From Candidatus Hadarchaeota archaeon (GTDB lineage: Archaea; Hadarchaeota; Hadarchaeia; Hadarchaeales; Hadarchaeaceae), in the NCBI GenBank assembly GCA_964514965.1, contig CAZETV010000001.1, positions 30,001-62,000 of the forward strand: DNA of 32,000 bases, read 5' to 3'. Below, piece after piece: positions 9,906-32,000 of the stretch (the stretch's first letter is position 1; each line of letters begins with the position of its first letter). Both the position numbers and the translations under genes were made by a program. Below the pieces are notes generated by a model, which was not told the DNA's origin, did not search any database, and saw only the letters and a list, made by a program, of their open reading frames with translations.

Positions 9906-9939
9906 AAATGTAAAATGGAAATTTATTAGAGCTATTATT

Positions 9940-12322: not shown

Positions 12323-12326
12323 TAAA

Positions 12327-15188: not shown

Positions 15189-15257
15189 TTGATATCCTCC
15201 TTTGGCTTTCTGGGCAGCCTCATCAAAATCTGAATTAAACAATATAAATCAATTCGG

Positions 15258-16617: not shown

Positions 16618-16895
16618 TATCCACCTCCTGCAAGTTCTATCTCACAAATTAATTTTGAACTTACAGCTAATTAAAACCATAATCCACGTTTTGATATAAT
16701 CTGCTCGTTCAGATTTTCGAAAGTAAATTGTTGGCATTTCAAGAAAGGATTATCTCGCGTATATCCGTAGGATGAATGTTTTGGTGAATGGCGCGGCAGA
16801 CCGTCACAAATGGATGTTTGATATCGGTTCTTCGCGTTCCAAAAATATTAAGAGATGCAACGATTGGATTAAAACTGGAAGGGTGTCTCCTTACA

Positions 16896-16986
16896 GGGCC
16901 CATAGCTCAGTTGGTAGAGCGCCGCCTTCGCATGCATTTGCCGGAAAAGGCGGAGGTCGCGGGTTCGAGTCCCGCTGGGTCCACCA
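16896..16986 (+). tRNA. tRNA-Ala (anticodon CGC) with a 15-nt intron at 37/38 and encoded CCA
   Basis: I drew the cloverleaf by hand. The acceptor GGGCCCA pairs with TGGGTCC, giving the G3:U70 Ala identity pair. The D arm is GCTC/GAGC, the anticodon stem is CCGCC/GGCGG, and the loop is TTCGCA..A. The intron is 16933-16947 (TGCATTTGCCGGAAA). The T arm is GCGGG-TTCGAGT-CCCGC, followed by ACCA. Confidence 0.9.
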
Positions 16987-17314
16987 CTTTTATTCAACCA
17001 CCCATCCCCGCCGTTAGCCTCGTCACTCGTGCTCATCGTCTTCGATACTAGAACTGCTAGTATCATTGCCGCACTCCTTTATAATTAGAATTTCGTTTTT
17101 CATTTTTTTCACTTCCTTACTCGCATTTTGGTATTCATACTAGTGGTAAACAGTAGCTGCACTAATGACCATCTGAGGGCAAACCGTGCACTATTTAAGT
17201 GTCTTAGTTCAATGAAATTAAGACACAATGGGCTTTTCTCAGGAAGAGCTTTTCAAAGAAACAGTTAAGACGTTTCTTCGGGTTGTGTCTAAGAAAAAAA
17301 GGAGTGTTAATAAA

Positions 17315-17500
17315 ATGGCATATGGCGGAAGATTCGGTGGACGCAGAAGGGATTTCCCTCGCGAAATGAACAAAGCGACTTGCTCAGACTGTGGCAAGGA
17401 ATGTGAGGTTCCCTTCAAACCAACAGAAGGTCGACCGGTTTACTGCAGAGAGTGCTTTCAGAAGCACCGATCAGAGAGAAGAGGCCCATCGCGCTGGTAG
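17315..17500 (+). CDS. CxxC-x17-CxxC zinc-ribbon protein with an Arg/Gly-rich N-terminus
   Basis: The sequence reads MAYGGRFGGRRRDFPREMNKATCSDCGKECEVPFKPTEGRPVYCRECFQKHR, with exactly 17 residues between the two CxxC pairs. An AGGAGTG SD lies 8 nt upstream of the ATG at 17315. The track's longer 17228 start lacks support. Confidence 0.7.
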   Translation: MAYGGRFGGRRRDFPREMNKATCSDCGKECEVPFKPTEGRPVYCRECFQKHRSERRGPSRW

Positions 17501-17804
17501 GTGAGCAGGTTCTGGTGGCTGTTCTCTTTGGTTAGCGATAGCTATCTTTCTCAGACTAGAAAGAAGTAATGGCTAACTAAAAAGGGACAAAATAGCAGGG
17601 AAAATTACAGAAAAACCTGTAAAGTTGAGTTCTCGAAATAGGAGAATCTGTCTACGCCACCTTGCTCATGAGGGCGCTTCGACCGCGTCTGAAATCGTTT
17701 AGGCCCTAGGGGTCCTTAGCGGCAAGCAAAGTGTAATGAAAGTAAAACGAATTAGATCAGATTATCTAAGAAGAAATTTAAGTAACGTGAGCAACTGCTT
17801 AAGG

Positions 17805-17897
17805 GGGCCCGTGGCGCAGATTGGTTAGCGCGTTCGGCTGATAGCCAGTTTGGCAGAAACCGGAAGGTCGAGGGTTCGAATCCCTCCGGGCCCACCA
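17805..17897 (+). tRNA. tRNA-Ile (anticodon GAU) with a 15-nt intron at 37/38 and encoded CCA
   Basis: The acceptor is GGGCCCG/CGGGCCC and the D arm is GCGC/GCGC. The anticodon stem is TTCGG/CCGGA and the loop is CTGATA..A. The intron is 17844-17858 (GCCAGTTTGGCAGAA). The T arm is GAGGG-TTCGAAT-CCCTC, followed by ACCA. An A/T box AAATTTAAGT lies about 20-30 nt upstream. Confidence 0.9.
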
Positions 17898-17913
17898 TCA
17901 AAGGTAACGAACT

Positions 17914-18711
17914 ATGTCACTCGACGAGAAACTTAAGCATCTCAAATCGATTATCCGAGACTGCAACAGTGCGGTAATCGCTTTTTCGGGTGGGGTCGAC
18001 TCCTCGCTCGTCTGCGCGGTTGCCCACGAAGTTTTGGGTGAGCGAACCGTCGCGGTCACGGCCATTTCTCAGACTTACCCGCATGGAGAAGTTGAATGGG
18101 CCAAGAAAGCTGCCGAGCATATCGGTATCAGGCATATGACCATCATCACGAACGAACTCGAGGACCCACATTTCGCCACAAATCCGCCAGAAAGATGCTA
18201 CAACTGTAAAAGTGAATTGCTTCGAAAATTGGATTGGGTCCGCAAGGAGATGGGATTTGAGAAAATTTTTGATGGAACGAATCTCGACGATTTTTCAGAC
18301 TACAGGCCGGGTATCCGCGCCCTCCGTGAGTTTGGGGTTCTTAGCCCGCTTGCGGAAGCTGGTTTGACGAAGGAGGAAGTTCGGGAGCTGGCGGCCGGGT
18401 ACGGTTTGCCAAATGCGGGTAAACCTGCCAATCCCTGCCTCGCTTCTAGGATTCCTTTCGGCCAGGAAATAACACCCGAAAAGCTCGAGCGGATAGCGAA
18501 AGGAGAGGAGTTCATTCGTTCGTTGGGTTTTTGCGTGGTTAGGGTGAGGGATTACGGGGAGCTGGCGAGGGTCGAAGTCGGAAAAGAGGAGTTGCAACGG
18601 GTGCTTCAGTTGAGCGGGAAAATTGAATCAGCTTTGAAGAGGCTCGGATATGCCCAAGTGACGATAGATCCCCGAGGCTACCGTGAAGGCGGGGCAAACC
18701 TCACTTTTTAA
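17914..18711 (+). CDS. PP-loop ATP pyrophosphatase, LarE-like (COG1606/TIGR00268 family) sulfur transferase
   Basis: The 265-aa ORF has the PP-loop AFSGGVDSSLV. It also has NPPERCYNCK and the conserved PCLASRIPFG segment with the LarE-type Cys. Confidence 0.8.
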   Translation: MSLDEKLKHLKSIIRDCNSAVIAFSGGVDSSLVCAVAHEVLGERTVAVTAISQTYPHGEVEWAKKAAEHIGIRHMTIITNELEDPHFATNPPERCYNCKSELLRKLDWVRKEMGFEKIFDGTNLDDFSDYRPGIRALREFGVLSPLAEAGLTKEEVRELAAGYGLPNAGKPANPCLASRIPFGQEITPEKLERIAKGEEFIRSLGFCVVRVRDYGELARVEVGKEELQRVLQLSGKIESALKRLGYAQVTIDPRGYREGGANLTF

Positions 18712-18717
18712 GTCAAG

Positions 18718-19533
18718 ATGCGAGGTATTAGAAAGGGTGCGAGATTGAAGCTTGAGGACACCAAAATAACGGCTGCGATCATAGAGCGATTCATGCGAAA
18801 TTTAATGGACATAACAGAGCTTGACGTAGCGATAGCTGGAGCTGGGCCATCGGGAATAACCGCCGCTCGCTACTTGGCCAAGGCGGGTGCTAAAGCTGCG
18901 GTTTTCGAGCGGAACCTTCATGTGGGGGGAGGGATGTGGGGTGGCGGAATTCTTTTCCCACGCATTGTGATTCAGGAGGAAGCGAAGGGAATTATAGAGG
19001 AGGTCGGGGTCAAGCTCGAGGCACATGAGGCTGGCTACTACACCGCTGATTCGGTGGAAGCCGTGTCTAAATTTACTTCAGCTGCGGTCGATTCTGGAGC
19101 GCGCGTAATGGTCGGGTTAACGGTAGAGGATGTGATGATACGAGAGAGAGATCGTGTGGCTGGCGTCGTGATTAATTGGAAAGCGGTTGAACTGGCAAGC
19201 CTGCACGTTGACCCGATTGGAATAAATGCGAAAGTCGTTATCGACGCCACGGGACACGATGCGAAGATAGCCCGCATAATACAACGGAAGGTACCTGGCG
19301 CCAAGTTTCCGACGAGTACAGGCGGAGTTATAGGAGAAAAGCCAATGTGGGCAGAGGCGGGAGAGGCCGAGATCATGCGCAACACACGTGAGGTCTATCC
19401 GGGTCTGATTGTGACAGGCATGGCAGCCAACACCGTCTTTGGATCGCCTCGAATGGGGGCGGTTTTTGGTGGCATGCTGCTCTCAGGCAAAAGGGCTGCG
19501 GAGATTGCCCTAGAGTTGCTTCGCAAAAAGTGA
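18718..19533 (+). CDS. thi4: Thiamine thiazole synthase Thi4 (archaeal, His-type non-suicide form)
   Basis: The sequence reads DVAIAGAGPSGITAARYLAKAGAKAAVFERNLHVGGGMWGGG (FAD/NAD fold). IDATGHDA has His at the position of the yeast sacrificial Cys. Confidence 0.9.
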   Translation: MRGIRKGARLKLEDTKITAAIIERFMRNLMDITELDVAIAGAGPSGITAARYLAKAGAKAAVFERNLHVGGGMWGGGILFPRIVIQEEAKGIIEEVGVKLEAHEAGYYTADSVEAVSKFTSAAVDSGARVMVGLTVEDVMIRERDRVAGVVINWKAVELASLHVDPIGINAKVVIDATGHDAKIARIIQRKVPGAKFPTSTGGVIGEKPMWAEAGEAEIMRNTREVYPGLIVTGMAANTVFGSPRMGAVFGGMLLSGKRAAEIALELLRKK

Positions 19534-19937: not shown

Positions 19938-20011
19938 GCCGGGGTGGCCCAATCTGGAAAGGCGGCGGACTGCAGATCCGCTTTTTGCCGGTTCAAATCC
20001 GGCCCCCGGCT
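19938..20011 (+). tRNA. tRNA-Cys (anticodon GCA), no intron, CCA not encoded
   Basis: The acceptor is GCCGGGG/CCCCGGC with discriminator U73. The anticodon stem is GCGGA/TCCGC with loop CTGCAGA. The T arm is GCCGG-TTCAAAT-CCGGC. T-runs follow (CTCTGTTTTTATACTTTTATTTC). Confidence 0.9.
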
Positions 20012-20112
20012 CTGTTTTTATACTTTTATTTCAAAGCCGACTTAGGCGTGCCAAAAATTGAATGCGTTCATAAAAAAAAAGGTTTATAAACACTATCTCT
20101 AAATCTCTCTTC

Positions 20113-20967
20113 ATGTGCCCGCCTTCGAAACTTTTCGGATTCGCGCTTGCGGCGATTTTTGTGGTCGTTGGATTGTCTGGATTAGTGGGTGCAGTTTCCG
20201 ATCATGGGTGGACTCTCGAAACCGCAGACCAGGCCTTCCAGACTTGGATAATAACGGATATAGAAGTAGGGCAGCAGGCAACGCTCACAGTCGATAGTTC
20301 CGGAAACTTTACAGGTTTGGGCTGGGTCGGAACCGCCCCAGGTGCTGGCGACTATAACATCTATATCACGAATGGTAGGATGTCAGGTACCTCGATGACC
20401 TTTCAGGTGAGTGCTTCTTATAGCGGAGGACAAGGGACCATTTCAGGAACAGGTACTGGGACACTGAACGCATCATTCCCGAGCGCTACATCAGCATCCG
20501 GAACACATTCCGGCACCATATCGGATCCACTTGGCAGTAAGGCTTACAGCTCCTCGTGGACTGCAACGAAAATTGGGGGAGACGGCGATGGAGGAGGTCT
20601 AGTCTTCCCAGACCTCACCGTATTAATCTATCGTGTAGCACCGGGTGTATCCCTTATCGTCGCTATAGTTGCAGCTGTTGCAATCGTAGTCGCTATTCTG
20701 CCCCTTCCACGTAAGGGGGTTCGACCCACAAGAGGTAAGTTAAAAACCGGTGCGCCTGCCAGCATGGTTCAGCATCTAGATTCAATACAAAAAATCCCGC
20801 CGGGTGCACGGCCTCTGCCTCAACCTAGGTTGCATCCGGGCAAATTTGAGCCAACCGATGTCCTTCAAAAAGTCCCCTGTCCATACTGCGGTACTATCCT
20901 CATTTCCGCATTTGGAAAATGGTACTGCCCGAATCCAAAGTGCAAATGGAATAAAGGAGAAGTGTAA
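20113..20967 (+). CDS. Hypothetical bitopic membrane protein: signal/anchor, Gly/Ser/Thr-rich ectodomain, TM helix, Pro-rich linker, C-terminal zinc ribbon
   Basis: The 284-aa ORF has an N-terminal hydrophobic segment, FGFALAAIFVVVGLSGLVGAV, and a central TM helix, VAPGVSLIVAIVAAVAIVVAILPL. The C-terminus is CPYCGTILISAFGKWYCPNPKC. A GGTTTATAAAC box lies about 25-30 nt before the ATG. Confidence 0.55.
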   Translation: MCPPSKLFGFALAAIFVVVGLSGLVGAVSDHGWTLETADQAFQTWIITDIEVGQQATLTVDSSGNFTGLGWVGTAPGAGDYNIYITNGRMSGTSMTFQVSASYSGGQGTISGTGTGTLNASFPSATSASGTHSGTISDPLGSKAYSSSWTATKIGGDGDGGGLVFPDLTVLIYRVAPGVSLIVAIVAAVAIVVAILPLPRKGVRPTRGKLKTGAPASMVQHLDSIQKIPPGARPLPQPRLHPGKFEPTDVLQKVPCPYCGTILISAFGKWYCPNPKCKWNKGEV

Positions 20968-20983
20968 GTCACAGGTGATCCTT

Positions 20984-21310
20984 ATGTCTGCCCAATCGCA
21001 GGGTGCGTCATCCTATGAATTCTTGCGTAAACAGGCTGCTGGGTATAGAGTCGGTCTCTTGATACTCGCCATAGCAGCGATGTTTTTAGCTGCTGTGAAC
21101 TATCAAATGCTAGATGAGAGCTTTGTCCGTACGAATTTCCAGATGGCTATTATCATTTTAGCTTTGACAGCAGCATTTGGATTCATCTGCTTAGGGGCGA
21201 TGAAAGGATATCTTAAGGTTCGTCGTTCTGCCAGCAACGCCCTGAGGGCTGGAACGGTTACAGAGATGTCGGATGTTCCAGTAAGAGCATCCAAGAAAAA
21301 AGGGAAATAG
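20984..21310 (+). CDS. Small hypothetical membrane protein (two TM helices)
   Basis: I chose the ATG at 20984 (AGGTGAT SD 5 nt upstream), 17 nt after the preceding stop. The hydrophobic stretches are VGLLILAIAAMFLAAV and MAIIILALTAAFGFICLGAM. The track's longer ORF (start 20804) overlaps the upstream gene. Confidence 0.5.
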   Translation: MSAQSQGASSYEFLRKQAAGYRVGLLILAIAAMFLAAVNYQMLDESFVRTNFQMAIIILALTAAFGFICLGAMKGYLKVRRSASNALRAGTVTEMSDVPVRASKKKGK

Positions 21311-21902: not shown

Positions 21903-22718
21903 TTAATATTCTGATGGGAGTTGTTTTAGTTTTTCATACGAAAAGACAGGTCCATCTCGGCATACATAAACACTGCCTAAATTGCACCTTCCGCATTTGC
22001 CCAATCCGCACTTCATTTTCATCTCAAGCGTCATAAAAATTTGATCGGGTTTGAATCCTAACTCCAAGAGGTTTTTCATGACAAAGTTTATCATGATTGG
22101 GGGACCGCAAGTCACGGCTATCGAATTTCCGGATGGAGGAGAAATTTTCAGCAAGTTGGCGGGTACGAAGCCTACAAATTCACCCCACCCATCCTCGGCC
22201 TTGTCGATTGATAAATGCACCTTTACTCCGTTATCCCTTAAGCCAAGGAGTTCTTTTTCTCGAATCAAATCTTTCCTACTCCTTGCTCCGTAAATTAACA
22301 TCAATTCTCTGTACTTTCCTTTATTCATTGTATAGTAAAGCAGAGGTCTCAGTGGGGGTAAACCTATGCCGCCGCCGATTAGTATTAATTTTTTTCCTTC
22401 CCACTCTTTAACTGGAAAACCGTTCCCATACGGTCCTCTTACCCAAACGGTTTCTCCCACCTCGAGTCTGTGCAGCGCCGTTGTAACTTTGCCCATCTTT
22501 TTCACGCAGATTTCTATTTTACCTTCAGCTGGTGGCGAAAAAAGAGAGACCGGAAACTCACCTTCCCCTAGCACTGATATTTCGAAGTACTGTCCCGGAA
22601 CAAAATTTAGCTTCTCTTCTCTGTCTTTTAGCTCCAGCTCAAAGCTCTTTATGTCTGGCGTTTCTTGCCTGATTTGCTTGATTACTGCGGGTTTTGGAGA
22701 GTAAATATATTCAGTCAA
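21903..22718 (-). CDS. FAD/NAD(P)-binding [2Fe-2S] oxidoreductase subunit, HydG (sulfhydrogenase gamma)/AsrB/FlxA-like
   Basis: The sequence reads PGQYFEISVLGEGEFPVS (FAD barrel) and LILIGGGIGLPPLRPL (NAD(P) fold). The C-terminus is MKCGLGKCGRCNLGSVYVCRDGPVF ([2Fe-2S]). I prefer the TTG start at 22718, which overlaps the upstream stop as TTGA and has a GGTGGGG SD. The track start at 22769 would overlap by 55 nt. Confidence 0.85.
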   Translation of the reverse strand: MTEYIYSPKPAVIKQIRQETPDIKSFELELKDREEKLNFVPGQYFEISVLGEGEFPVSLFSPPAEGKIEICVKKMGKVTTALHRLEVGETVWVRGPYGNGFPVKEWEGKKLILIGGGIGLPPLRPLLYYTMNKGKYRELMLIYGARSRKDLIREKELLGLRDNGVKVHLSIDKAEDGWGEFVGFVPANLLKISPPSGNSIAVTCGPPIMINFVMKNLLELGFKPDQIFMTLEMKMKCGLGKCGRCNLGSVYVCRDGPVFSYEKLKQLPSEY

Positions 22719-23716
22719 GATTTCCCCACCTTCGATAATATCTCGATTAAATTTATCCCTGATGGACAATTATCTAAGCATCTCCCGCAGCCGACGCAGC
22801 CGATTTCATCGATGTTTTCCAACAGGTATTGGAACTTGTGGTAGACTCTGTTTCGAATCCTCTCTCGTCGGGTTGGTCTTGGGTTATGGCCGGAGGATTG
22901 CAAGGTGAAATAAGGGAACGTGCAAGAATCCCAAGTTCTCACCCTGAAGGTTTTGCCGTCCAAGAATTCGTCAGTCAAATCAAAGCAATGACAGGTGGGG
23001 CAAAAGTAAGCGCATACCCCACAGCCAATACATATTTTGGATACTTCGTCCCAGATTTCGCTTTCGAAAGTGTGTTTTAATTTTGCGGTTACCTGCTTCA
23101 CATCTAATTCTCGTGCAATCTTTTTTTCCGCGTTCTGCTGGGTGTTTTTCCTTAACTCTATATCAGCTTTGGTTGGTTCTGAGAACAATTCTTTGCTACT
23201 CTCAACCAATTTTTCCCCGACCTTGCTCAACACTTCCACATAGTATTTCTCACCCATATCTGTGAGCAGCATATCGAGCCCATCTGTAGAAAACGGACCC
23301 AAGCCGAGAGAGCTGCAAAAACAATTTTCCCCTGGGGATGTACAGGCCAGCCCGATCATGGGGAGATTATTTTTCCTCTGTAAAAAGTAAGGGTCTTCAC
23401 GATCTTTTTCGAAAACCTTGGTCAACACCTGTATGCTTTTCGCATCGCAGGGTCTAACTCCAAATATTACTCCCAAGTTCGAAACTTTTGGTGTATAGAT
23501 CTCCTTTTTGCCCGCCATGAAAATCGTTTCCGTTTGAGGCATGAATAAAGACTTGATTGGTTTCAGGGTGTTCGTGAACTCAAAAGTTATTTCTTTCGGA
23601 TCATTTACAAGCTTAAACTCGATTTTGCCTTCCTCATCTTTAACAGGTGCATATAACTTTTCAGTGCGCAGATTTCGCAGAAACTTTTGCAAATCTCTCT
23701 TCTTGATGACTTTCAT
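22715..23716 (-). CDS. Fe-S subunit, HydB (sulfhydrogenase beta)/AsrA/FlxB-like, 4Fe-4S dicluster
   Basis: The 333-aa ORF reads GVRPCDAKSIQVLTKVF, with CTSPGENCFCSSLG. The two cluster motifs are CIGCGVCAYFCPTCHC and CVGCGRCLDNCPSG. The start overlaps the upstream stop (ATGA). Confidence 0.85.
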   Translation of the reverse strand: MKVIKKRDLQKFLRNLRTEKLYAPVKDEEGKIEFKLVNDPKEITFEFTNTLKPIKSLFMPQTETIFMAGKKEIYTPKVSNLGVIFGVRPCDAKSIQVLTKVFEKDREDPYFLQRKNNLPMIGLACTSPGENCFCSSLGLGPFSTDGLDMLLTDMGEKYYVEVLSKVGEKLVESSKELFSEPTKADIELRKNTQQNAEKKIARELDVKQVTAKLKHTFESEIWDEVSKICIGCGVCAYFCPTCHCFDLTDEFLDGKTFRVRTWDSCTFPYFTLQSSGHNPRPTRRERIRNRVYHKFQYLLENIDEIGCVGCGRCLDNCPSGINLIEILSKVGKS

Positions 23717-24684
23717 CTTATGAACTCCTCAGGATCCTCTAGTTTAAAACTCGCGAGAAGAGGTTTCTGTTCTATATTTATGCCCGCCCTGTAGTCAAAA
23801 AGATTCTTCATGTCTTTTTCCATTTTTCTAAACAGCTTTGAGAGTGGTATCCCCTCCGGGCAGCTATGTTCGCACGCAACGCAGCCAACGCACCTCCCGG
23901 CCAAGTGGAATACTCTCATCAAATGGAAAAAGGCATTTTCGGACTCAACTACTGATTTTTTAACCCATGTTGGCATCGTCTTGTCCGCGAGACATTCTTT
24001 GCAATAGCAGAGCGGACACACTTCCCTGCAGGCATAGCACCTAACACATTTACTTAGCTTTTCCTTCCAGTAATCCCATCTCTCCTCTAACTCCATTCTC
24101 TCTATCTCCTTCACGTCGTCGTAGTTCTCTTTGCCCCAGGGTTTCACTTCCTCGCCGAGCAGGATATCATAAATTACAGGGGTGGGATTTTGGCAGTGAT
24201 TGCAACTGTCGAACACGAATTCTCTTCGATCGAGTTTGATGACTCCATTTTTTGTTTCGACTTTCACTGTTCCGTTTTCGATTAGAATTCCCGTGACTGA
24301 AGAGGACTGTACATTTCTTTTACCGAGCTCTTCACGCAGTTTTTCAAGGTCTACTATACCCTGGCAAGGAATTCCTATCAGCACCACTTTCTCTCTGTCA
24401 ACAATCCCTTCCTGTATCAACTTTGTCACTGCACGGCTATCGCAACCTTTGACCACCAAGCCGATTTTTTCGCCTGCTTTGATTTCTTCTAAAGTTAAAT
24501 AGACGGCCAAATTGTGAGCACATAGAGAGGAATAGTGTAGTTTGTTAACATCATCGGTCGATTTAGCAAAGAAGGGCCTCGCGTTCAAGGGTTCGACCAT
24601 TTCGTATCCGATGATATATTTCACTTTTCCTTCGGTCAGTAGCCTGTTTGCCTCTTTTCGGAGATTTTCTACTAAGCTTACCAT
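23713..24684 (-). CDS. Second HydB/AsrA-like Fe-S subunit (FlxC-like), 4Fe-4S dicluster
   Basis: The 323-aa ORF reads GLVVKGCDSRAVTKLIQEG, the same N-domain motif as the neighbouring HydB-like protein. The cluster motifs are CVRCYACREVCPLCYC and CVGCVACEHSCPEG. The start overlaps the mvhD stop by 7 nt (ATGGTAA). Confidence 0.75.
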   Translation of the reverse strand: MVSLVENLRKEANRLLTEGKVKYIIGYEMVEPLNARPFFAKSTDDVNKLHYSSLCAHNLAVYLTLEEIKAGEKIGLVVKGCDSRAVTKLIQEGIVDREKVVLIGIPCQGIVDLEKLREELGKRNVQSSSVTGILIENGTVKVETKNGVIKLDRREFVFDSCNHCQNPTPVIYDILLGEEVKPWGKENYDDVKEIERMELEERWDYWKEKLSKCVRCYACREVCPLCYCKECLADKTMPTWVKKSVVESENAFFHLMRVFHLAGRCVGCVACEHSCPEGIPLSKLFRKMEKDMKNLFDYRAGINIEQKPLLASFKLEDPEEFIR

Positions 24685-25100
24685 TCTATCTTCCTCTTGA
24701 TTTTTTTCATTGGGCCAAGCACTCGGATTTCTTCCACCATGTCTTCCACGATTTTAGCAAACTTCTGTCCTTCCGATGCAGAAACCCACGCGGCTTGGAG
24801 CCTTTTTGGATTTATCCCAATGTATTCCAAAAGATTTCTTAGGAGCTTCAGTCTTCTTCTATTGTAATAGTTTCCTTCCCGATAATGGCATTCCCCTGGG
24901 TGACAACCACCTATGAACACGCCGTCAGCTCCTTGCTGGAAACACCTCAACACCCACAATGGATTCACCCTGCCCGAGCACATCACCCTGATGGTTCTCA
25001 AGTTAGGCGGGTAGGTCAATCTGCTAGTACCTGCCAAATCGGCTCCCGCATAAGCACACCAATTGCATAAGAAGCCTACTATACGCGGTTCCCAACTCAA
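24678..25100 (-). CDS. mvhD: MvhD/FlxD: methyl-viologen-reducing hydrogenase delta subunit family ([2Fe-2S])
   Basis: The 140-aa ORF reads PRIVGFLCNWCAYAGADLAG...IRVMCSGRV...GADGVFIGGCHPGECHY, the family signature. The TTG start overlaps the upstream stop as TTGA. Confidence 0.9.
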   Translation of the reverse strand: MSWEPRIVGFLCNWCAYAGADLAGTSRLTYPPNLRTIRVMCSGRVNPLWVLRCFQQGADGVFIGGCHPGECHYREGNYYNRRRLKLLRNLLEYIGINPKRLQAAWVSASEGQKFAKIVEDMVEEIRVLGPMKKIKRKIEW

Positions 25101-28100
25101 CTTTGCTCACCCAGTACATCGATTAAGGGCAATACTTGTTTGTCTTCAAAGTGTCGCTGTTGAATGGCTCCTGAAGGACAGGCTGCAGAGCATATGCCGC
25201 AACCTTTACATAACGCTTCATTTACCTTGGCTAATTTTGATATTGCCCCTTTCTTCTCCACCGTCTTGAGTTCTATTACATTTGTTGGACAAACCTCAGC
25301 ACAGAAACCACAACCAGTGCACAAATTCTCATCGACCGAGGCCACAATTCCTTCGGCCATCACCTTACCTTTTGTTAACAAAGAGCAAACTTCAGCTGCG
25401 CTCGCTGATGCTTGTGATACTGTGTCGGGGATGTCTTTGGGCGATTGGGCGCATCCAGCAAGGAAGATCCCGTCGCTAAAGGTATCGACAGGTCTAAGCT
25501 TTGGATGGGCCTCGAGGAAGAAGCCATCCGAGCCTTGGTTAATGTTTAGGATTTTGGCTAGCTCGGAGGCACCATGGCTAGGAACAATCGCGCTAGCTAA
25601 CACCACGAGGTCTACTTCTTCGGGCTCGTGAGGCTTTGCTTCCACAACGAGTTTGTCATTTTTTTTGCTGACCCTTATCTCGTCGTCCAGCTCCCTGCGC
25701 TTGTACTTCACTCCTTCGTCCTTGACCCGGTCGTAGAACTCCTCGTACCCTTTACCAAAAGCCCTGACATCTGTGTAGTATACAGTCACTTCAGCATCCG
25801 GAATTTTTTCCTTAATGAGGTGAGCATGCTTGGCCGTGTACATGCAGCATACGCGCGAGCAATATGAGTTCGTCTCTTTTTTCCTGCTTCCAACACAGGA
25901 GATGAATGCTACTCGCTTCGGCTCCTTACCGTTTATTTCAATTTTTCCGTTGGTCGGGCCGGAAGCCGAACTAAGCCTCTCGAACTCAAGCCCAGTTATC
26001 ACCTCTGGATATTTCCCGTAACCATACTCGGGGAGCTTGGAAGGATCGAATTGATCGAAGCCCGTGGTTACGACTATAGCGCCAACATCGAGTTCGATTG
26101 ATTCCTCTTTTTGATTATGAACAATGGCTTTGGCCTCGCATGCTTTTTCACATTCAAGACACTCAGAACACCCGCCGCACTGCAAACATCGTTTTGCTTC
26201 TTTTATCGCTTCTTCTTCGGTATAACCTAACTCGACTTCTCGAAAGTTGTTTTTCCTCTCTTCGATCGGCAGGTATCTCATCGGCACTTTTCGTTCATTT
26301 TTAACATCTTCTACTGATACCTCAGCGATTTTTGGTTTTATCCCGCGACCGTCTTTCAGGTCTTTCTCGTTGATGTATCTGTCAATGGAAATTGCAGCTT
26401 CTTTTCCGGCAGCAATTGCTTCTATAACAGTCCCAGCACCTAACACGGCATCGCCGCCGCAAAAAACGGCTTCTATATTGGTTGCTAACGATATAGGGTC
26501 AATTTTGACAGTTCCCCAAGGGGTACATTCTAAATTAATATCCTTGGTTAAGAAGCTCAAATCCACTTCCTGTCCGATAGCTAATATCAGGCTATCCGCT
26601 TCCATCATAAACTCAGAGCCAGGGATGGGTCTAACTTTTCTTCTACCAGTTTCATCAGGCTCTGTCAATTCCATCTTGATGCATTCAATTGCTTTGATAT
26701 GCTCGTTTTCACCTATAATTTTTGTTGGTGTGGTAAGATAGACTAGTTTCACGCCTTCATGCTCTGTTTCGTCAATTTCCCATTCTGGTTCTGCAGGCAT
26801 TTCTACACGAGACCTGCGATACATTATGATAACTTCCTTAGCACCTAATCTCAAAGCAGAACGTGCTGTGTCTAATGCTGCATTGCCTCCACCAACGACA
26901 ATTATCTTATCGCCTAGTTTAGGAGTCTTACCTAAATTCAGCTCTTTCAAGAATTCGGTAGCTTGGAATACACCTCCAAGTTTTTCGCCAAGTATATCCA
27001 TTTTTCTACCTTTCTGAGCCCCCACAGCTAAAAAAATCGCTTTATAACCACTGTCGAATAGGTTCTTTATAGTCAAATTTTTGCCTATCGCCGAGTTCAG
27101 ATGCACTTTAACTCCTAGCGCGAGAATGTCAGATATCTCTCTTTCAAGAATTTCTCTCGGCAGTCGAAAAGTAGGAACACCAAATCGCATCATGCCGCCA
27201 AGCACGGGCGCACTTTCATATATTGTTACAGGGTATCCTTTCATAGCAAGGTCATGAGCAGCAGTTAAGCCAGCAGGCCCTCCTCCGACTATAGCCACAG
27301 TTTCTGTTCTCTTTTTTATAGGGGAGGATTCTGTAGTAGGGCTCTTGAGCTCTAAATCTCCGACAAAACGTTTAATATGTGCTATGCTTACTGGCTCATC
27401 TATATCTTTTCTTGTGCATGCTTTTTCGCAAGGCCTGTGACAGACCCTGCCGCATATAGATGGAAACGGAAGTTTCTCTTTTATAACTTGGAGTGCCTCG
27501 TAGAATTTACCGCGACTGGTGAGCATTACGTAACCAGGTGCGCCAACACCTGCAGGGCACGCGTCTTTGCATGGTTGTAATCCCCGTTTATCGATAGTAT
27601 ATTTGGGCGGAACCGCTTGTGGGAATGGAATGTAAATTGATTTTCTGCTGCTGAGCCCAAAGTCAAACTCGTTTGGCAGTTTCACAGAGCATACTTCGGT
27701 GCATTCTCCACATCCAGTACACTTTTCCGGGTCCACGTATCTAGGCTTTTTCCTTACTTTTAACTTAAAGTTACCTACATAACCCTCGATGTTTTCAATT
27801 TCTGAATAAGTCAGGAGTTCTATATTTGGATGCCATTTTACGTCTACCATCTTGGGGGTGAGAATGCACGCAGAGCAATCCAGAGTTGGGAAAGTCTTGT
27901 CGAGTTGGGCCATCCTCCCTCCGATGGATGGTGAGCGCTCCACGAGGTATACTTTGAAACCCCTGTCCGCGATGTCGAGGGCAGCTTGCATCCCGGCTAT
28001 GCCCCCGCCTATTACGGCGGCCTGAGGTATGACGGAAATTTCGTTTCTTTCCAAGCTTTCGAGTTCTACAGCTCTGTTTACACCTGCCAAGACGAGTTCC

Positions 28101-28444
28101 AGCGCTTTTTTCGTAGCTTCTTCTTTTTCTTCATGAACCCAAGAGCATTGCTCTCTTATATTCACCATCTCGAAGCAGTAAGGATTCAGCCCCGCTTCTT
28201 CGACAGCGCTGCGAAAAGTAGGCTCATGCATCCTGGGCGAACAAGATGCTACTACTATTCTGTCTAACTTCTCCCTGCGGATATCATCTTTGATTAATTG
28301 CTGGCCGGGTTCTGAGCACATGTATTCGTAGTGTTTGGAGACCTTCACTCTTGGATGCTTTCCTATGGTATCCGCGACTTTTTCGACATCCACTGTCTTC
28401 GCAATGTTGGTTCCGCAATGACAGATATAGACGCCGATTTTCAT
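25097..28444 (-). CDS. HdrA-like flavoprotein with a GltD/NfnB-like NAD(P)H:FAD module nested in its inserted ferredoxin domain (1115 aa)
   Basis: The N-terminus and residues ~1-287 are collinear with the upstream HdrA (VYICHCG.., AAVIGGGIAGMQAAL, TLDCSACILTPKM, CTGCGECTEVC). Residues ~288-752 read CPAGV..PFPSICGRVCHRPCEKAC, VAIVGGGPAGLTAAHDL..GGMMRFGVPTFRLP and IIVVGGGNAALDTARSALRLGA..MYRR, which are GltD-type. HdrA then resumes with CLQCGGCSECLECEKAC, CVGSRKKETNSYCSRVCC and the C-terminal 2x[4Fe-4S] motifs. Confidence 0.9.
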   Translation of the reverse strand: MKIGVYICHCGTNIAKTVDVEKVADTIGKHPRVKVSKHYEYMCSEPGQQLIKDDIRREKLDRIVVASCSPRMHEPTFRSAVEEAGLNPYCFEMVNIREQCSWVHEEKEEATKKALELVLAGVNRAVELESLERNEISVIPQAAVIGGGIAGMQAALDIADRGFKVYLVERSPSIGGRMAQLDKTFPTLDCSACILTPKMVDVKWHPNIELLTYSEIENIEGYVGNFKLKVRKKPRYVDPEKCTGCGECTEVCSVKLPNEFDFGLSSRKSIYIPFPQAVPPKYTIDKRGLQPCKDACPAGVGAPGYVMLTSRGKFYEALQVIKEKLPFPSICGRVCHRPCEKACTRKDIDEPVSIAHIKRFVGDLELKSPTTESSPIKKRTETVAIVGGGPAGLTAAHDLAMKGYPVTIYESAPVLGGMMRFGVPTFRLPREILEREISDILALGVKVHLNSAIGKNLTIKNLFDSGYKAIFLAVGAQKGRKMDILGEKLGGVFQATEFLKELNLGKTPKLGDKIIVVGGGNAALDTARSALRLGAKEVIIMYRRSRVEMPAEPEWEIDETEHEGVKLVYLTTPTKIIGENEHIKAIECIKMELTEPDETGRRKVRPIPGSEFMMEADSLILAIGQEVDLSFLTKDINLECTPWGTVKIDPISLATNIEAVFCGGDAVLGAGTVIEAIAAGKEAAISIDRYINEKDLKDGRGIKPKIAEVSVEDVKNERKVPMRYLPIEERKNNFREVELGYTEEEAIKEAKRCLQCGGCSECLECEKACEAKAIVHNQKEESIELDVGAIVVTTGFDQFDPSKLPEYGYGKYPEVITGLEFERLSSASGPTNGKIEINGKEPKRVAFISCVGSRKKETNSYCSRVCCMYTAKHAHLIKEKIPDAEVTVYYTDVRAFGKGYEEFYDRVKDEGVKYKRRELDDEIRVSKKNDKLVVEAKPHEPEEVDLVVLASAIVPSHGASELAKILNINQGSDGFFLEAHPKLRPVDTFSDGIFLAGCAQSPKDIPDTVSQASASAAEVCSLLTKGKVMAEGIVASVDENLCTGCGFCAEVCPTNVIELKTVEKKGAISKLAKVNEALCKGCGICSAACPSGAIQQRHFEDKQVLPLIDVLGEQS
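25632..26029. repeat. Copy A of a 398-bp perfectly identical tract shared by the two hdrA paralogues
   Basis: Base-by-base comparison with 28952-29349 (offset 3320) found no mismatch. The identity extends to 25605 with one mismatch, at 25631 (A versus G). The flanks drop to roughly 60-70% identity. Confidence 0.95.
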
Positions 28445-30399
28445 GATATCAGACCTGCCAATTGAGCGAAGAGTTGAACGTCCGTGTAATGTTTCATAGA
28501 GATAGCCTTAGACGGACAAGCGGCTACACAAACCCCGCAACCCTTGCAAAGCACTTCGTTGAGTTTTACTGAGCGTTTTTCGCTGTTATATTCAAAGGCA
28601 TTAAACTCACAAAGGTGTTCACACACTCTGCAACCGCTACATAGATCCTCATCCACAATTGCTACTATCGGCTCTATCGCGACTTTTCCAGCTGCCAGGG
28701 GTATAGATGCTTTAGCACCTGCACCGCTTGCTTGTGCTACTGTGTCGGGGATGTCTTTGGGCGATTGGGCGCAGCCGGCAAGGAAGATCCCGTCGCTAAA
28801 GGTATCGACAGGCCTAAGCTTTGGGTGGGCCTCGAGGAAGAAGCCATCCGAACCGCGGGTAATGTTCAAAATTCTGGCGAGTTCTAAGACTCCGGAGTTT
28901 GGAACTATTGCATTCGCCAGCACAACGAGGTCTACTTCTTCGGGCTCGTGGGGCTTTGCTTCCACAACGAGTTTGTCATTTTTTTTGCTGACCCTTATCT
29001 CGTCGTCCAGCTCCCTGCGCTTGTACTTCACTCCTTCGTCCTTGACCCGGTCGTAGAACTCCTCGTACCCTTTACCAAAAGCCCTGACATCTGTGTAGTA
29101 TACAGTCACTTCAGCATCCGGAATTTTTTCCTTAATGAGGTGAGCATGCTTGGCCGTGTACATGCAGCATACGCGCGAGCAATATGAGTTCGTCTCTTTT
29201 TTCCTGCTTCCAACACAGGAGATGAATGCTACTCGCTTCGGCTCCTTACCGTTTATTTCAATTTTTCCGTTGGTCGGGCCGGAAGCCGAACTAAGCCTCT
29301 CGAACTCAAGCCCAGTTATCACCTCTGGATATTTCCCGTAACCATACTCAGGCAACTGAGATGGATCAAACAAGTCAAAGCCTGTGGCGACCACTATCGA
29401 GCCTACTTCAAGTTCAATCGAATTTTCTTGTTGTTCAAAATCGATAGCGTTGCGGGAACACGCAGCTTTGCAAGCGGGGCTTTTCCCACATACCCCTCTC
29501 GTAAGGTATAGGCAATGCTTAGGGTCTATCAAGTATTTCATAGGCACGGCCTGCGGAAATGGTATGTATGCTGCTCCTCTCTTCCCTAAACCCAAATCGA
29601 ATTCATTTGGAAGCTTCCCATTCAGTAAGCAAGCTTTGGCGCATTCTCCGCAACCGATGCACTTTTCCTCATCGACATACCTCGGTTTTTTCTTAACCTT
29701 TACCTTGAAATTTCCGATGTAGCCTTCAATTCGTTCGACCTCCGAATAACTCAAGAGTTCTATATTTGGCTGTCTGTTCACGTCCACCATCTTGGGGGTT
29801 AAAATGCACGCAGAACAATCTAAGGTTGGAAAGGTTTTGTCGAGTTGAGCCATTTTTCCTCCGATGGATGGTGAGCGCTCCACGAGGTACGTGTATATTC
29901 CATTTTCTGCTATCTCCAACGCCGCTTGAATCCCGGCAATTCCTCCTCCAATCACCAAAGCTTTCGGTATTACATCTACTTCTCTCCTCTCTAGCGGCTG
30001 AAGTTCGGTAGCTCGTGCCACAGCGCCTGCAATCAATTTCTTGGCCTTTTCAGTGGCTCTTTCTTTATCTTCATGAACCCAAGAGCACTGTTCTCTTATA
30101 TTTGCCATCTCGAAGCAGTAGGGGTTGAGGTTCTTGTGTTCTACGACCTTTCTAAAAGTGGGTTCGTGCATTCTTGGAGAACAGCTCGCCACGACTACAC
30201 GATCAAGTCCGGCTTCGTCTATATCCTTCTTGATTAATTCTTGTCCTGGGTCAGAGCACATGTACTTATAGTCCCTAGCAATCACCACGTTTGGCAAAGA
30301 CTTGGCATATTTCACCACTTCTTCAACATCAACGGTAGCCGCTATATTTAAGCCGCAATGGCAAATGTACACGCCCGTTTTCACTTCCTTATCCCCCAT
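28441..30399 (-). CDS. hdrA: Heterodisulfide reductase subunit A (HdrA), canonical length
   Basis: The 652-aa ORF reads VYICHCGLNIA (N-domain) and ALVIGGGIAGIQAAL (FAD). The inserted ferredoxin is CIGCGECAKAC..CLYLTRGVCGKSPACKAAC. The HdrA signature CVGSRKKETNSYCSRVCC is present. The C-terminal ferredoxin is CSGCRVCEHLC / CKGCGVCVAACP. An ATGA overlap joins it to the next gene. Confidence 0.92.
   Translation of the reverse strand: MGDKEVKTGVYICHCGLNIAATVDVEEVVKYAKSLPNVVIARDYKYMCSDPGQELIKKDIDEAGLDRVVVASCSPRMHEPTFRKVVEHKNLNPYCFEMANIREQCSWVHEDKERATEKAKKLIAGAVARATELQPLERREVDVIPKALVIGGGIAGIQAALEIAENGIYTYLVERSPSIGGKMAQLDKTFPTLDCSACILTPKMVDVNRQPNIELLSYSEVERIEGYIGNFKVKVKKKPRYVDEEKCIGCGECAKACLLNGKLPNEFDLGLGKRGAAYIPFPQAVPMKYLIDPKHCLYLTRGVCGKSPACKAACSRNAIDFEQQENSIELEVGSIVVATGFDLFDPSQLPEYGYGKYPEVITGLEFERLSSASGPTNGKIEINGKEPKRVAFISCVGSRKKETNSYCSRVCCMYTAKHAHLIKEKIPDAEVTVYYTDVRAFGKGYEEFYDRVKDEGVKYKRRELDDEIRVSKKNDKLVVEAKPHEPEEVDLVVLANAIVPNSGVLELARILNITRGSDGFFLEAHPKLRPVDTFSDGIFLAGCAQSPKDIPDTVAQASGAGAKASIPLAAGKVAIEPIVAIVDEDLCSGCRVCEHLCEFNAFEYNSEKRSVKLNEVLCKGCGVCVAACPSKAISMKHYTDVQLFAQLAGLIS
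28952..29349. repeat. Copy B of the 398-bp identical tract
   Basis: This tract is identical to 25632-26029. The track's antisense ORFs 25830..26021 and 29150..29341 translate identically, which confirms the match independently. Confidence 0.95.
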
Positions 30400-30430
30400 G
30401 AAATCACGCCAGCAGTGAATTTGGCCTAGG

Positions 30431-30467
30431 TTTAATCTTTTTATCTATTACCATCATGGTTTAAAAG
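30431..30467. promoter_or_regulatory. Two A/T boxes in the 98-bp divergent hdrA / hydrogenase intergenic region (candidate back-to-back TATA elements)
   Basis: TTTAATCTTTTTATC lies at 30431-30445 and TTTAAAAG at 30460-30467. They sit between the hdrA ATG (30399, minus) and the small-subunit start (30498, plus). Assigning each box to a strand is a guess. Confidence 0.3.
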
Positions 30468-30497
30468 TCGTCCTGACTAAAAGGTTGAGGTGGCCGG

Positions 30498-31490
30498 TTG
30501 AGAAAAATGAAGAGTGAAGAACCAAAAAAGTTGAAATTTGCTTTCTACTGGGCTGGCAGTTGTGGGGGCTGTGAGATTGCTGTTCTAGATATAAACGAGA
30601 AGATTCTGGATGTGGTTGCCATTGCTGAGGTAATCTTTTGGCCTGTCGCCATGGATATCAAGTATAAAGACGTAGACGCGATGCCGGACAAGAGCATAGA
30701 CGTCTGTTTCTTTAATGGTTCGGTCAGGACAGAGGAGCAAGAACACATGGCCAAACTTCTGAGGCGGAAGTCAAAGTTTTTGATAGCATTTGGCACCTGT
30801 GCTCAGCTAGGTGGCATTCCAGGTCTTGCGAACATTTCGAATAAAAAAGAGATTTTCGAGAAGGTATACGTTCAAACTCCATCGACAAAAAATTCTAAAG
30901 CTGCGATACCTAAAACTGCTGTTAAAGTCGAATGCGGGGAACTAACTCTGCCAGAGTTTTATGATACTGTGAAGACACTAGATCAAACCGTGGAAGTGGA
31001 CTACTATATCCCAGGTTGTCCTCCGCACCCAAACTTGATATTGAAAGCCGTGGAAGCCATAGCCAAAAATGAGTTACCCGCTAAAGGTTCGGTATTGGCC
31101 CCCGAGAAGTCGGTTTGCGATGAATGTCAGAGGGAAAAGAAAGAAAAGGTTATCTCCAGATTATACAGGATGCACGAAATCAAACCAGATCCGGAGAAAT
31201 GTTTTTTGGAGCAGGGGGTGGTGTGCATTGGGCCCGCAACCCGTGGTGGATGCGAGGCGCGGTGTATCAATGCGAATATGCCTTGTACGGGGTGCGGTGG
31301 TCCATGCCCCAATGAAATCGAGCAAGGGGCGTCCATGATAAGTGCCATTTCTTCGATTCTCGGGTTGGATGAGGAAAAAGGAGAAACATATGACGCTGAA
31401 AAATTAATCAACCAAATAAAAGACCCCTTGGGGACTTTTTACCGGTACTCCCTGCCAGCTGCTCTCATCCGAAGGAGGGTTCAGAAATGA
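30498..31490 (+). CDS. mvhG: [NiFe]-hydrogenase small subunit, group 3 (MvhG-like)
   Basis: The 330-aa ORF reads KLKFAFYWAGSCGGCEIAVLDINEKILD (proximal cluster) and FGTCAQLGGIPG, with YIPGCPP. The distal cysteines are CDECQ..CFLEQGVVCIGPATRGGCEARCINANMPCTGCGGP. A TTG at 30498 lies 4 nt after a GAGGTGG SD; the ATG at 30507 is an alternative. Confidence 0.85.
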   Translation: MRKMKSEEPKKLKFAFYWAGSCGGCEIAVLDINEKILDVVAIAEVIFWPVAMDIKYKDVDAMPDKSIDVCFFNGSVRTEEQEHMAKLLRRKSKFLIAFGTCAQLGGIPGLANISNKKEIFEKVYVQTPSTKNSKAAIPKTAVKVECGELTLPEFYDTVKTLDQTVEVDYYIPGCPPHPNLILKAVEAIAKNELPAKGSVLAPEKSVCDECQREKKEKVISRLYRMHEIKPDPEKCFLEQGVVCIGPATRGGCEARCINANMPCTGCGGPCPNEIEQGASMISAISSILGLDEEKGETYDAEKLINQIKDPLGTFYRYSLPAALIRRRVQK

Positions 31491-32000
31491 GCGAATTTAA
31501 GGAGATAAGCATAGAGCCCGTCACGAGGCTTGAGGGTCACGCAAAGATAGTGATATTTCAAGATGAGAAAGGGGAAGTGAAAAACGCCTATTTACAACTC
31601 CCTGAACTCAGGGGCTTTGAGAGATTCTGTGAGGGGAGAAAAGCTGAAGACCTCCCACAGCTGCTCTCGAGAATTTGCGGAGTATGTCCCGTTGCCCATC
31701 ATCTCGCTTCCACGAAAGCTTTGGATGCGGCGTTTCGTGTGGACCCCCCTTCAGCTGCGAAAAAACTTCGGGAACTCATGTACAGCGGCTATTTCATGTA
31801 CGATCACATTCTTAATTTTTATTTCCTAGCTGCGCCGGACTTCGTCGTGGGGCCTGATGCTCCACCTCAAGAAAGAAACATTTTCGGCGTGATCAAGAAG
31901 GTCGGCTTAGACGTGGCCAAGGAAGTAATCAAGCATCGGGCTTACGGCCAAAAAATTACCGAGATAATAGGTGGAAAGGCAACCCATCCGGTTTGTGGAC
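31487..32000 (+). CDS. mvhA: [NiFe]-hydrogenase large subunit, Mvh-like (group 3c-like); N-terminal 171 codons, continues past the window
   Basis: It is absent from the track because there is no stop in the window. My own translation from the ATG at 31487 (ATGA overlap with the small subunit, GGAGGG SD) reads MSEFKEISIEPVTRLEGHAKIVIFQDEKGEVKNAYLQLPELRGFERFCEGRKAEDLPQLLSRICGVCPVAHHLASTKALDAAF. It contains the RxCGxCxxxH Ni-binding motif and closely follows the MvhA N-terminal pattern. Confidence 0.88.
   Translation, partial: MSEFKEISIEPVTRLEGHAKIVIFQDEKGEVKNAYLQLPELRGFERFCEGRKAEDLPQLLSRICGVCPVAHHLASTKALDAAFRVDPPSAAKKLRELMYSGYFMYDHILNFYFLAAPDFVVGPDAPPQERNIFGVIKKVGLDVAKEVIKHRAYGQKITEIIGGKATHPVCG

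Follow-up and report, generated by a model that had tools for sequence, protein, structure and literature searches.

What can a flavoprotein of the HdrA type do where no disulfide-reducing partner is encoded beside it? The question is raised by a locus at the end of a 32,000-nucleotide stretch (hereafter the window) of contig CAZETV010000001.1, which is Hadesarchaea (Hadarchaeota) DNA from an uncultured subsurface archaeon. Two genes for an Mvh-type [NiFe] hydrogenase are found there and, divergent from them, a six-gene operon for two HdrA paralogues (HdrA1 and HdrL), the adaptor MvhD and the subunits FlxC, FlxB and FlxA of an arm for reduced nicotinamide adenine dinucleotide (phosphate) [NAD(P)H]. 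The genes provide cofactor-binding modules for H2, NAD(P)H (at two sites) and ferredoxin-type clusters, and they are translationally coupled or divergently linked. By analogy with solved complexes we tentatively propose, with slightly less than even confidence, that the locus would encode one modular, cytoplasmic, HdrA-centred bifurcating or confurcating complex coupling H2, NAD(P)H and ferredoxin.

To our knowledge, HdrA is one of only four flavin-based electron-bifurcating scaffolds. Among the publications and PDB entries that we found, all HdrA complexes with a biochemically or structurally defined reaction use HdrBC and a disulfide acceptor. If NAD(P)+ replaces the disulfide in the Hadesarchaea complex, the HdrA flavin would be able to bifurcate between ferredoxin and pyridine nucleotides.

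The two HdrA proteins

Domains were assigned with Pfam, NCBIfam and sequence searches of the PDB. HdrA1 contains the thioredoxin-reductase-like core that binds flavin adenine dinucleotide (FAD), the N-terminal domain, and the inserted and C-terminal ferredoxin domains. It matches the HdrA of the solved Mvh-Hdr and Elp-Hdr complexes from end to end (5ODC_A and 8RVU_a, E about 1e-237). Its residues 5-650 align with residues 3-649 of 5ODC_A, the cysteine motifs being visibly kept, and the HdrA2/HdrA models of NCBIfam give 869 and 665 bits.

In HdrL the NCBIfam HdrA models match two pieces, residues 2-298 and 750-1109, while GltD/NfnB models match residues 285-790. Against the PDB it retrieves HdrA chains down to E 1e-225 together with NfnA/StnA/NfnB/GltD matches over residues 290-768. 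The extra module enters the inserted ferredoxin domain after ...PQAVPPKYTIDK and ahead of the second CxxCxxCxxxC motif. These split HdrA matches, with NfnB/GltD matches between them, bear out the sequence-only reading in its claim of two HdrA paralogues, one with a GltD-like insert.

The insert carries two [4Fe-4S] motifs, an FAD site (VAIVGGGPAGL) and a nucleotide site (VVGGGNAALD...IIMYRRSRVEMPA). Among solved structures it comes closest to subunits of bifurcating transhydrogenases that handle NADPH: 9BOV_A (subunit A of C. saccharolyticus NfnABC), 9N5U_A, 8OH5_C (StnA), 4YLF_B (T. maritima NfnB, E 6e-104) and 5JCA_L (NfnB). Residue-level alignments reveal the motif GGGN(T/A)A(M/L)D...YRR(T/S)xxEMPA in the insert and in all five of these chains. 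Because the nucleotide-site motif is the same as that of NfnB, StnA and GltD, NADPH is predicted as the substrate of the insert. The arginines of the YRR-type motif have a role in NADPH preference. An AlphaFold2 model of HdrL, built from a 12-sequence alignment, reached a mean predicted local distance difference test score (pLDDT) of 70 and a predicted template modelling score (pTM) of 0.46. When it was submitted to Foldseek, 5ODH_A (template modelling score [TM] 0.65 on target) and 4YLF_B (TM 0.81, root-mean-square deviation 2.6 A) were retrieved, which confirmed, at the level of the predicted structure, that HdrL contains both the HdrA and the NfnB domain folds.

Among the GltD inserts of the 168 loci surveyed below, the YRR form was found 47 times (window included) and a CLE[STQK] form 11 times. 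These represent two motif classes, GGGNxAxD...YRR, which is NADPH-like, and GGGNVAxD...CLE[STQK], which is NADH-like and occurs, for example, in L017, L025, L034 and L095. Both are of the GXGXXA type, as against the GXGXXG reported for type III HdrA (PMC12054007).

The genes hdrA1 and hdrL are 91.5% identical over 705 nt, compared with 69% in their N-terminal halves (blastn and codon-register comparison), and within the former segment lies a tract in which the two copies are the same (Table 1). This tract spans the cysteine motif CVGSR...YCSRVCCMY. It looks like the product of recent gene conversion, the alternative being an assembly artefact. The homologous segment in L001, L086 and L002 is 82-84% identical, versus 73-76% in the N-terminal halves, a pattern which suggests that the part bearing this motif undergoes recurrent homogenisation.

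The adaptor, the Flx arm and the hydrogenase

MvhD is canonical (Pfam FlpD, E 1.7e-56; PDB 8RVU_F and 5ODC_D, E about 1e-53). FlxC belongs to PF04432 (FrhB_FdhB_C, E 3.8e-12), and the 4Fe-4S cysteine motifs lie in a C-terminal stretch that can be aligned with the C-terminus of FdhB; its PDB matches are the FdhB/Elp chains of Hdr complexes (9T1S_M, 1e-27; 8RVU_E; 7BKB_E). FlxB possesses a Pfam Fer4_22 domain (E 7e-32), scores 230 bits with the NCBIfam ShyB model and has as its best solved relative the beta subunit of P. furiosus sulfhydrogenase I (9NEZ_B, E 3.5e-53). FlxC and FlxB share 26% identity, in the ferredoxin part only. Of the two genes that had been called HydB-like, flxB deserves the name; flxC is instead of the F420-type, FdhB/ElpB-like kind.

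FlxA contains FAD_binding_6, NAD_binding_1 and DHODB_Fe-S_bind domains, and its best solved relative is the gamma subunit of the same sulfhydrogenase (9NEZ_C, E 3e-63). It scores 217 bits to that subunit versus 56 bits to NfnA (4YLF_A), which is a member of the same PyrK/NfnA superfamily. Three genes separate flxA from the NfnB-like insert. With these domains of FlxA and the matches of FlxB, FlxC and FlxD, the presence of a Flx-type NAD(P)H module (FlxDCBA) in the operon is upheld.

The hydrogenase is Mvh/Vhu-type and group 3c-like by its sequence scores, as had been proposed. MvhG (Pfam Oxidored_q6) gives 225 bits with the VhuG model of NCBIfam versus 89 bits with ShyD, and the 171-residue fragment of MvhA (Pfam NiFeSe_Hases) gives 203 bits with VhuA versus 90 bits with ShyA. 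For the full-length L086 orthologue of MvhA, a protein of 495 aa, the scores are 398 bits to 5ODC_F versus 105 bits to the alpha subunit of sulfhydrogenase I (SHI), and 439 bits to VhuA versus 203 bits to ShyA. On these scores a group 3b sulfhydrogenase reading is rejected for the hydrogenase subunits. Against 7T2R_D, from what we take as the NiFe-HydABCSL enzyme of A. mobile, the score of the large subunit equals that against MvhA.

Organization of the locus

The six-gene minus-strand operon and the divergent mvhG-mvhA pair, 98 bp away, were reproduced in order and coordinates by the table of open reading frames (ORFs), which contains all eight genes, six on the minus and two on the plus strand (Table 1). 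Direct reading of the sequence gave overlaps at all five minus-strand junctions, in operon order ATGA, TTGA, ATGGTAA, ATGA and TTGA, exactly as had been claimed. The start of mvhD overlaps the stop of hdrL, directly downstream of which it lies. Clear Shine-Dalgarno-like elements (GGTG or GAGG) precede four of the five junctions, and the hdrA1/hdrL junction has a weak element only. On the plus strand, mvhG and mvhA overlap by ATGA behind GGAGG. For flxA the first TTG would give a protein of 288 aa and the TTG at 22718 one of 271 aa; the latter, which shares bases with the flxB stop codon and follows GGTGGGG, is likely to be the true start. The intergenic region, with its A+T-rich boxes, probably represents shared archaeal promoters of both operons.

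Table 1. Features of the Hadesarchaea locus (window positions)
Feature	Position	Strand	Description
hdrA1	28441-30399	minus	652 aa; canonical type I HdrA
hdrL (hdrA::gltD, type III HdrA)	25097-28444	minus	1115 aa
NfnB/GltD-like insert of HdrL (about aa 287-750)	26195-27586	minus	
mvhD/flxD	24678-25100	minus	140 aa; [2Fe-2S] adaptor between donor arms and HdrA
flxC	23713-24684	minus	323 aa; FdhB/ElpB-like iron-sulfur subunit
flxB	22715-23716	minus	333 aa; HydB/AsrA-like polyferredoxin
flxA	21903-22769 (or 22718)	minus	HydG/AsrB/PyrK-like; FAD, NAD(P)H and [2Fe-2S] sites
mvhG	30498-31490	plus	330 aa; [NiFe]-hydrogenase small subunit, Mvh/Vhu type
mvhA	31487-32000	plus	N-terminal 171 aa of [NiFe] large subunit; ORF truncated by the window end
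Divergent intergenic region	30400-30497		98 bp; A+T-rich boxes TTTAATCTTTTTATC and GGTTTAAAAG
Putative gene-conversion tract, hdrA1 copy	28952-29349	minus	398 nt, 100% identical to hdrL 25632-26029
Putative gene-conversion tract, hdrL copy	25632-26029	minus	

Search for disulfide reductase genes

No homologue of a CCG-domain protein, HdrB, HdrC or HdrD was detected in window positions 1-32000, which include 21 kb on the flxA side of the locus. HdrB paralogues available for comparison share only ~30% identity. Nor was a polyferredoxin gene mvhB seen in the locus. The region beyond mvhA was deduced by synteny from four relatives (L001 and L086-L088) whose proteins are 88-96% identical to those of the window; HdrL itself clusters, at the 90% level, with a protein of Hadesarchaea archaeon DG-33. 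In these relatives mvhA is followed by hycI, a convergent sufC-sufBD-flpD group, a hypothetical gene, a membrane protein gene and asd, and no hdrB, hdrC or hdrD was found in about 8 kb. Since hycI and unrelated genes occupy the place directly after mvhA in the relatives, hdrBC do not stand there, the arrangement by which the sequence-only reading said it would be refuted does not occur in them, and the claim that the operon does not encode hdrBC has held.

In the same relatives a second mvhD/flpD paralogue (147-165 aa) lies past hycI (L086 2442-4865, L001 1911-4327), directly after sufC and a SufB/SmsB-like gene and in convergent orientation to mvhA. The complex may have in it a further adaptor, or its role may lie in Fe-S assembly.

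A comparative survey was made of 168 loci (L001-L168), with ORFs labelled by BLASTP against the window proteins and HdrB, HdrC and HdrD references. A metagenome scan with HdrL, which contributed to it, gave mostly distant bacterial loci, not close relatives. In a sample of Flx loci that is small, lineage-redundant and partly bounded by contig ends, hdrB, hdrC or hdrD accompanied 34 of 39 loci with a plain hdrA and 6 of 15 with hdrL (40/54 in total). Five of the nine hdrL loci lacking all three belong to the same Hadesarchaea lineage, and some have short flanks. The contrast fits a role in which the NfnB-bearing HdrA might stand in for HdrBC.

The HdrBC subunits might, on the other hand, be encoded elsewhere in the genome. 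From the locus would then come the A, D, G and Flx subunits of conventional MvhADG-HdrABC and FlxABCD-HdrABC complexes, with HdrB/HdrC (or HdrD) provided in trans and a (hetero)disulfide or a DsrC-like thiol protein as high-potential acceptor. We consider this the main rival reading, somewhat less likely than the HdrA-centred complex. The predominance of hdrB, hdrC or hdrD among Flx loci as a whole would be expected from it, as would the hdrCB pairs adjoining homologous genes in L002/L003 and L085 (see below) and the fact that HdrA1 is a full-length, close homologue of the HdrA that binds HdrBC. Asgard archaeal clusters of such a type have moreover been annotated as MvhADG-HdrABC and FlxABCD-HdrABC acting on "an unidentified heterodisulfide" (PMC7015854, PMC11291895). 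It is opposed by the lack of all three genes within 21 kb on one side of the locus and about 8 kb on the other in the Hadesarchaea lineage, by copies of the six-gene operon without hdrBC in Chloroflexi, and by the far greater frequency with which hdrL Flx loci, compared with plain hdrA loci, lack them. HdrABC, for the regeneration of CoM and CoB, is listed among the genes of the alkane-oxidising Cerberiarchaeaceae (Hadarchaeota) in a study that does not state whether other Hadarchaeota lack it (PMC10811742); as a point against trans-encoded partners this listing is suggestive only.

Gene arrangements in related loci

Four arrangements recur in the survey. The first, hdrCB-hdrA-flxDCBA or hdrD-hdrA-flxDCBA, is common in bacteria, and the second is hdrCB-hdrL-mvhD-mvhGA. 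The third, mvhGA-(hycI)-mvhD-flxCBA-(hdrA)-hdrL, occurs in L085 (Promethearchaeota), where hdrCB is divergent upstream, and in L002/L003, where it is embedded between hdrCB pairs. The fourth is that of the window, hdrA-hdrL-mvhD-flxCBA without hdrBC, and is found in the Hadesarchaea set, in L011 (Dehalococcoidia) and in L019 (Anaerolineales). That mvhGA keeps company with mvhD-flxCBA and hdrL in distant archaea (L085, L002/L003 and the Hadesarchaea set) speaks for the HdrA-centred complex. In L038 (Thermoplasmata), too, mvhGA, flxCBA and hdrA genes lie together, but a GltD insert was not detected there.

L002 and L003 represent a 65%-identical lineage in which, at 13710-19120 and 9852-15262 respectively, hdrL-mvhD is followed by genes for a GlcD-like FAD oxidase and an HdrD-like CCG protein, a lipoate-protein-ligase-like gene, hdrC, hdrB and a gene for a 1581-aa double HdrL. 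The lipoate ligase between Hdr genes recalls the sHdr-LbpA systems of sulfur oxidisers.

The six-gene operon of L011 and L019 stands among unrelated genes. Neither a hydrogenase nor hdrBC was found in the DNA fetched for these two loci, that of L011 beginning at a contig end, and in L019 fragmentation affects hdrA and the first part of hdrL. An operon of this kind might be a hydrogenase-independent, HdrA-based NAD(P)H:ferredoxin oxidoreductase or Nfn-like transhydrogenase, in which case mvhGA would encode a separate enzyme that has just the regulatory region in common with it or relies on a different MvhD and HdrA. For the window we regard this as unlikely. Besides the stand-alone Chloroflexi copies, it would accommodate the similarity of the HdrL insert to the NADPH subunits of the NfnABC, Stn and NfnAB transhydrogenases, the membership of FlxA in the PyrK/NfnA superfamily and the second mvhD past hycI. 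But in Hadarchaeota, Promethearchaeota and the L002 lineage there is linkage of mvhGA with flxCBA and hdrL, in many cases with all of them co-linear on a single strand. The two nucleotide sites may share a preference for NADPH, and transhydrogenation would then have no second nucleotide to act on; the scores of FlxA given above place it much nearer to sulfhydrogenase gamma than to NfnA.

In L007, L009 and L010 (Eubacteriales, Aminicenantes) genes of the flxB/hydB and flxA/hydG kind are followed by those for the small and large hydrogenase subunits and then by hdrC-hdrB-hdrL, an order which suggests another hydrogenase-HdrL pairing.

Gene orders of this sort also bear on a simple scheme, a non-bifurcating NAD(P)-reducing hydrogenase like the group 3b sulfhydrogenase, with electrons passing from MvhAG through MvhD and FlxCBA to NAD(P)+ and the HdrA proteins as accessories. 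Sulfhydrogenase I beta and gamma are the best solved relatives of FlxB and FlxA, the order mvhGA-(hycI)-mvhD-flxCBA exists in L085 and L002, and a hydBGDA-like order stands beside hdrCB-hdrL in the three loci just named. We nevertheless judge it very unlikely: both hydrogenase subunits are Mvh/Vhu-type rather than 3b-type, flxCBA is translationally coupled in the window to mvhD and the two HdrA genes and not to mvhGA, and two large FAD proteins with complete cluster sets would be improbable passengers.

Proposed complex and reaction

In the HdrA-centred complex that we tentatively favour, HdrA1 and HdrL would form a dimeric core, as judged from the solved Mvh-Hdr, Fdh-Hdr and Elp-Hdr complexes. 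MvhD would dock two arms on this core, MvhAG, exchanging electrons with H2, and FlxABC, exchanging them with NAD(P)H, the FdhB-like FlxC touching MvhD. Ferredoxin would exchange electrons at the intact inserted ferredoxin domain of HdrA1 and NADP(H) at the NfnB-like insert of HdrL. With NAD(P)+ as the more positive partner in place of the heterodisulfide, the net reversible reaction would be 2 H2 + Fd(ox) + NAD(P)+ <-> Fd(red) + NAD(P)H, where Fd is ferredoxin, and it would lie near equilibrium. Hadarchaeota have been described as fermentative heterotrophs of subseafloor sediment (PMC9979476), and in a fermentative Hadesarchaeon NAD(P)H together with reduced ferredoxin would probably drive the evolution of H2. 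Because the operon occurs without hydrogenase in two Chloroflexi loci, its six genes may by themselves provide an HdrA-based NAD(P)H:ferredoxin or Nfn-like module. Both the bifurcating H2:ferredoxin/NAD(P)+ reaction and the transhydrogenase-like function that the sequence-only reading had put forward are thus hypothetical.

Several points weigh against such a complex. HdrA1 is ~60% identical to methanogen HdrA over its full length and retains the motif CVGSR...YCSRVCCMY, which we take from solved structures to be the cluster that hands electrons to HdrC; because this motif is kept, a partner at the HdrC-facing site of HdrA1 is still to be expected. Relatives at 58-70% identity (L002, L085) keep hdrCB beside the same genes. 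The absence of HdrBC covers the neighbourhood of the locus, and an HdrBC encoded elsewhere in the genome would restore a conventional complex of the heterodisulfide type. If NAD(P)+ alone serves as the positive acceptor, H2 has little driving force with which to reduce ferredoxin. The composition, the HdrA1-HdrL heterodimer, the direction of electron flow and the assignment of the high- and low-potential branches are all inferred. A pTM of 0.46 is too weak to position the insert of HdrL relative to the HdrA core. Finally, FlxA reads IYGARSRKDL where sulfhydrogenase gamma has INTARYGKDL, a motif by which nucleotide specificity is not fixed.

A wider generalization is doubtful but worth stating. 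Hadesarchaea, and probably some Chloroflexi and other archaea, might possess an HdrBC-independent class of HdrA complexes, in which a heterodimer of a canonical HdrA and an NfnB-bearing HdrA takes interchangeable, MvhD-docked Mvh and Flx arms and couples H2, NAD(P)H and ferredoxin without a disulfide. If so, it would be to HdrA what the bifurcating hydrogenases HydABC, and Nfn, are to their own scaffolds, and might be a repurposed remnant of methanogenic Mvh-Hdr machinery. An HdrA complex with NAD(P)+ in place of the disulfide would also explain the many hdrA, hdrL and flx clusters of non-methanogenic subsurface archaea and bacteria that are annotated with an "unknown heterodisulfide", and clarify how H2 is made or consumed by Hadarchaeota, Asgard archaea and other fermenters that abound in sediments. 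Being short and clearly bounded, the Hadesarchaea locus lends itself to expression and structural studies.

Neighbouring genes

The remainder of the window is archaeal housekeeping, with genes for GTP cyclohydrolase III, MetRS, aRF1, a class I tRNA synthetase, Thi4 and MoaE. Three tRNA genes are present at 16896-16986, 17805-17897 and 19938-20012, two of which are 88-93 nt long, consistent with archaeal introns. ARAGORN reported the first as 'tcgc' and assigned no anticodon to it; the others are Ile-GAT and Cys-GCA. ORFs of 284, 168, 150, 123 and 107 aa without a Pfam match lie at 20113-21310 and 2355-4254, and homologues of those of 284 and 168 aa adjoin moaE in L086 (17423-18644).

Comparison with known systems

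The word "new", which the sequence-only reading gave to its candidate complex, is too strong, since Flx-Hdr modules, HdrL, the idea of HdrA heterodimers, and type III HdrA together with mvhADG have all been discussed on the basis of genomes. Fusions of HdrA and glutamate synthase were named HdrL in 2009 (PMC2702500). HdrL has been found with HdrABC in Syntrophobacter proteomes, where a Hdr/Flox cluster has two hdrA genes (PMC5947623). For ANME-1 archaea, an NfnB insertion in HdrA and the idea of asymmetric heterodimers of HdrA paralogues were described in 2022 (PMC9012536). "Type III HdrA" was classified in 2025, with mvhADG beside the gene in Bathyarchaeota, NADH as a donor of mid potential and an NADH/H2 hypothesis (PMC12054007). 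Hdr dimers take interchangeable, MvhD-mediated arms (Mvh, FdhAB, ElpAB; PMC12350162), and one dimer can bind two different arms simultaneously (PMC13518236). We found no biochemical characterisation, in the literature, of an HdrL-containing or HdrBC-less Mvh/Flx/HdrA complex. Its parts being known from other genomes, the combination in the window is an uncharacterised variant of HdrA/Flx/Mvh systems and no new kind.

With MvhADG-HdrABC of methanogens (H2:CoM-S-S-CoB, ferredoxin oxidoreductase; 5ODC) the locus shares the Mvh-type subunits, MvhD, an HdrA ~60% identical end to end and probably the same docking via MvhD. It differs in the lack of hdrB, hdrC and a visible mvhB, in the addition of a second HdrA with an NfnB-like insert and of the Flx NAD(P)H arm, and in its host, for which methanogenesis is not described. 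In sulfate reducers and other anaerobes, FlxABCD-HdrABC (Hdr/Flox) has the same order, mvhD(flxD)-flxC-flxB-flxA after hdrA, which is shared by dozens of loci, and that of Syntrophobacter also has two hdrA genes (PMC5947623). Unlike it, the Hadesarchaea locus has no hdrCB or hdrD, which the plain loci that have them carry ahead of hdrA; one of its hdrA genes is of the HdrL type, and a hydrogenase is attached.

As in the HdrL or type III HdrA of Desulfobacterium autotrophicum, ANME-1 and Bathyarchaeota, a GltD/NfnB module of ~460-500 aa lies in the inserted ferredoxin domain, and mvhD follows (PMC2702500, PMC9012536, PMC12054007). The published hypothesis, however, retains CoM-S-S-CoB as a substrate. 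Furthermore, the insert has GXGXXA and YRR, of the NADPH type, instead of the GXGXXG ascribed to NAD in type III HdrA (PMC12054007), and HdrL here has a type I HdrA and a Flx arm beside it.

The Elp-Hdr and Fdh-Hdr complexes (8RVU, 7BKB, 9T1S) likewise have an FdhB/ElpB-like subunit and an MvhD-like adaptor, the homologues of FlxC and MvhD, as an alternative donor arm. Their arms oxidise F420H2 or formate and serve HdrABC, whereas that of the locus extends to FlxB and FlxA and would end at NAD(P)H. The NADPH subunits of NfnAB, NfnABC (Bfu-type) and StnABC are 38-45% identical to the HdrL insert and are represented here as a domain only. With the group 3b sulfhydrogenase the beta (FlxB) and gamma (FlxA) subunits match, but the hydrogenase subunits are Mvh/Vhu-type and encoded on the strand opposite flxBA. 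The proposed net reaction of H2, NAD(P)+ and ferredoxin equals that of HydABC and NiFe-HydABCSL; unlike HydABC and Nfn, the bifurcating flavin would be the FAD of HdrA, and not a NuoF-type flavin mononucleotide site or a free-standing NfnB.

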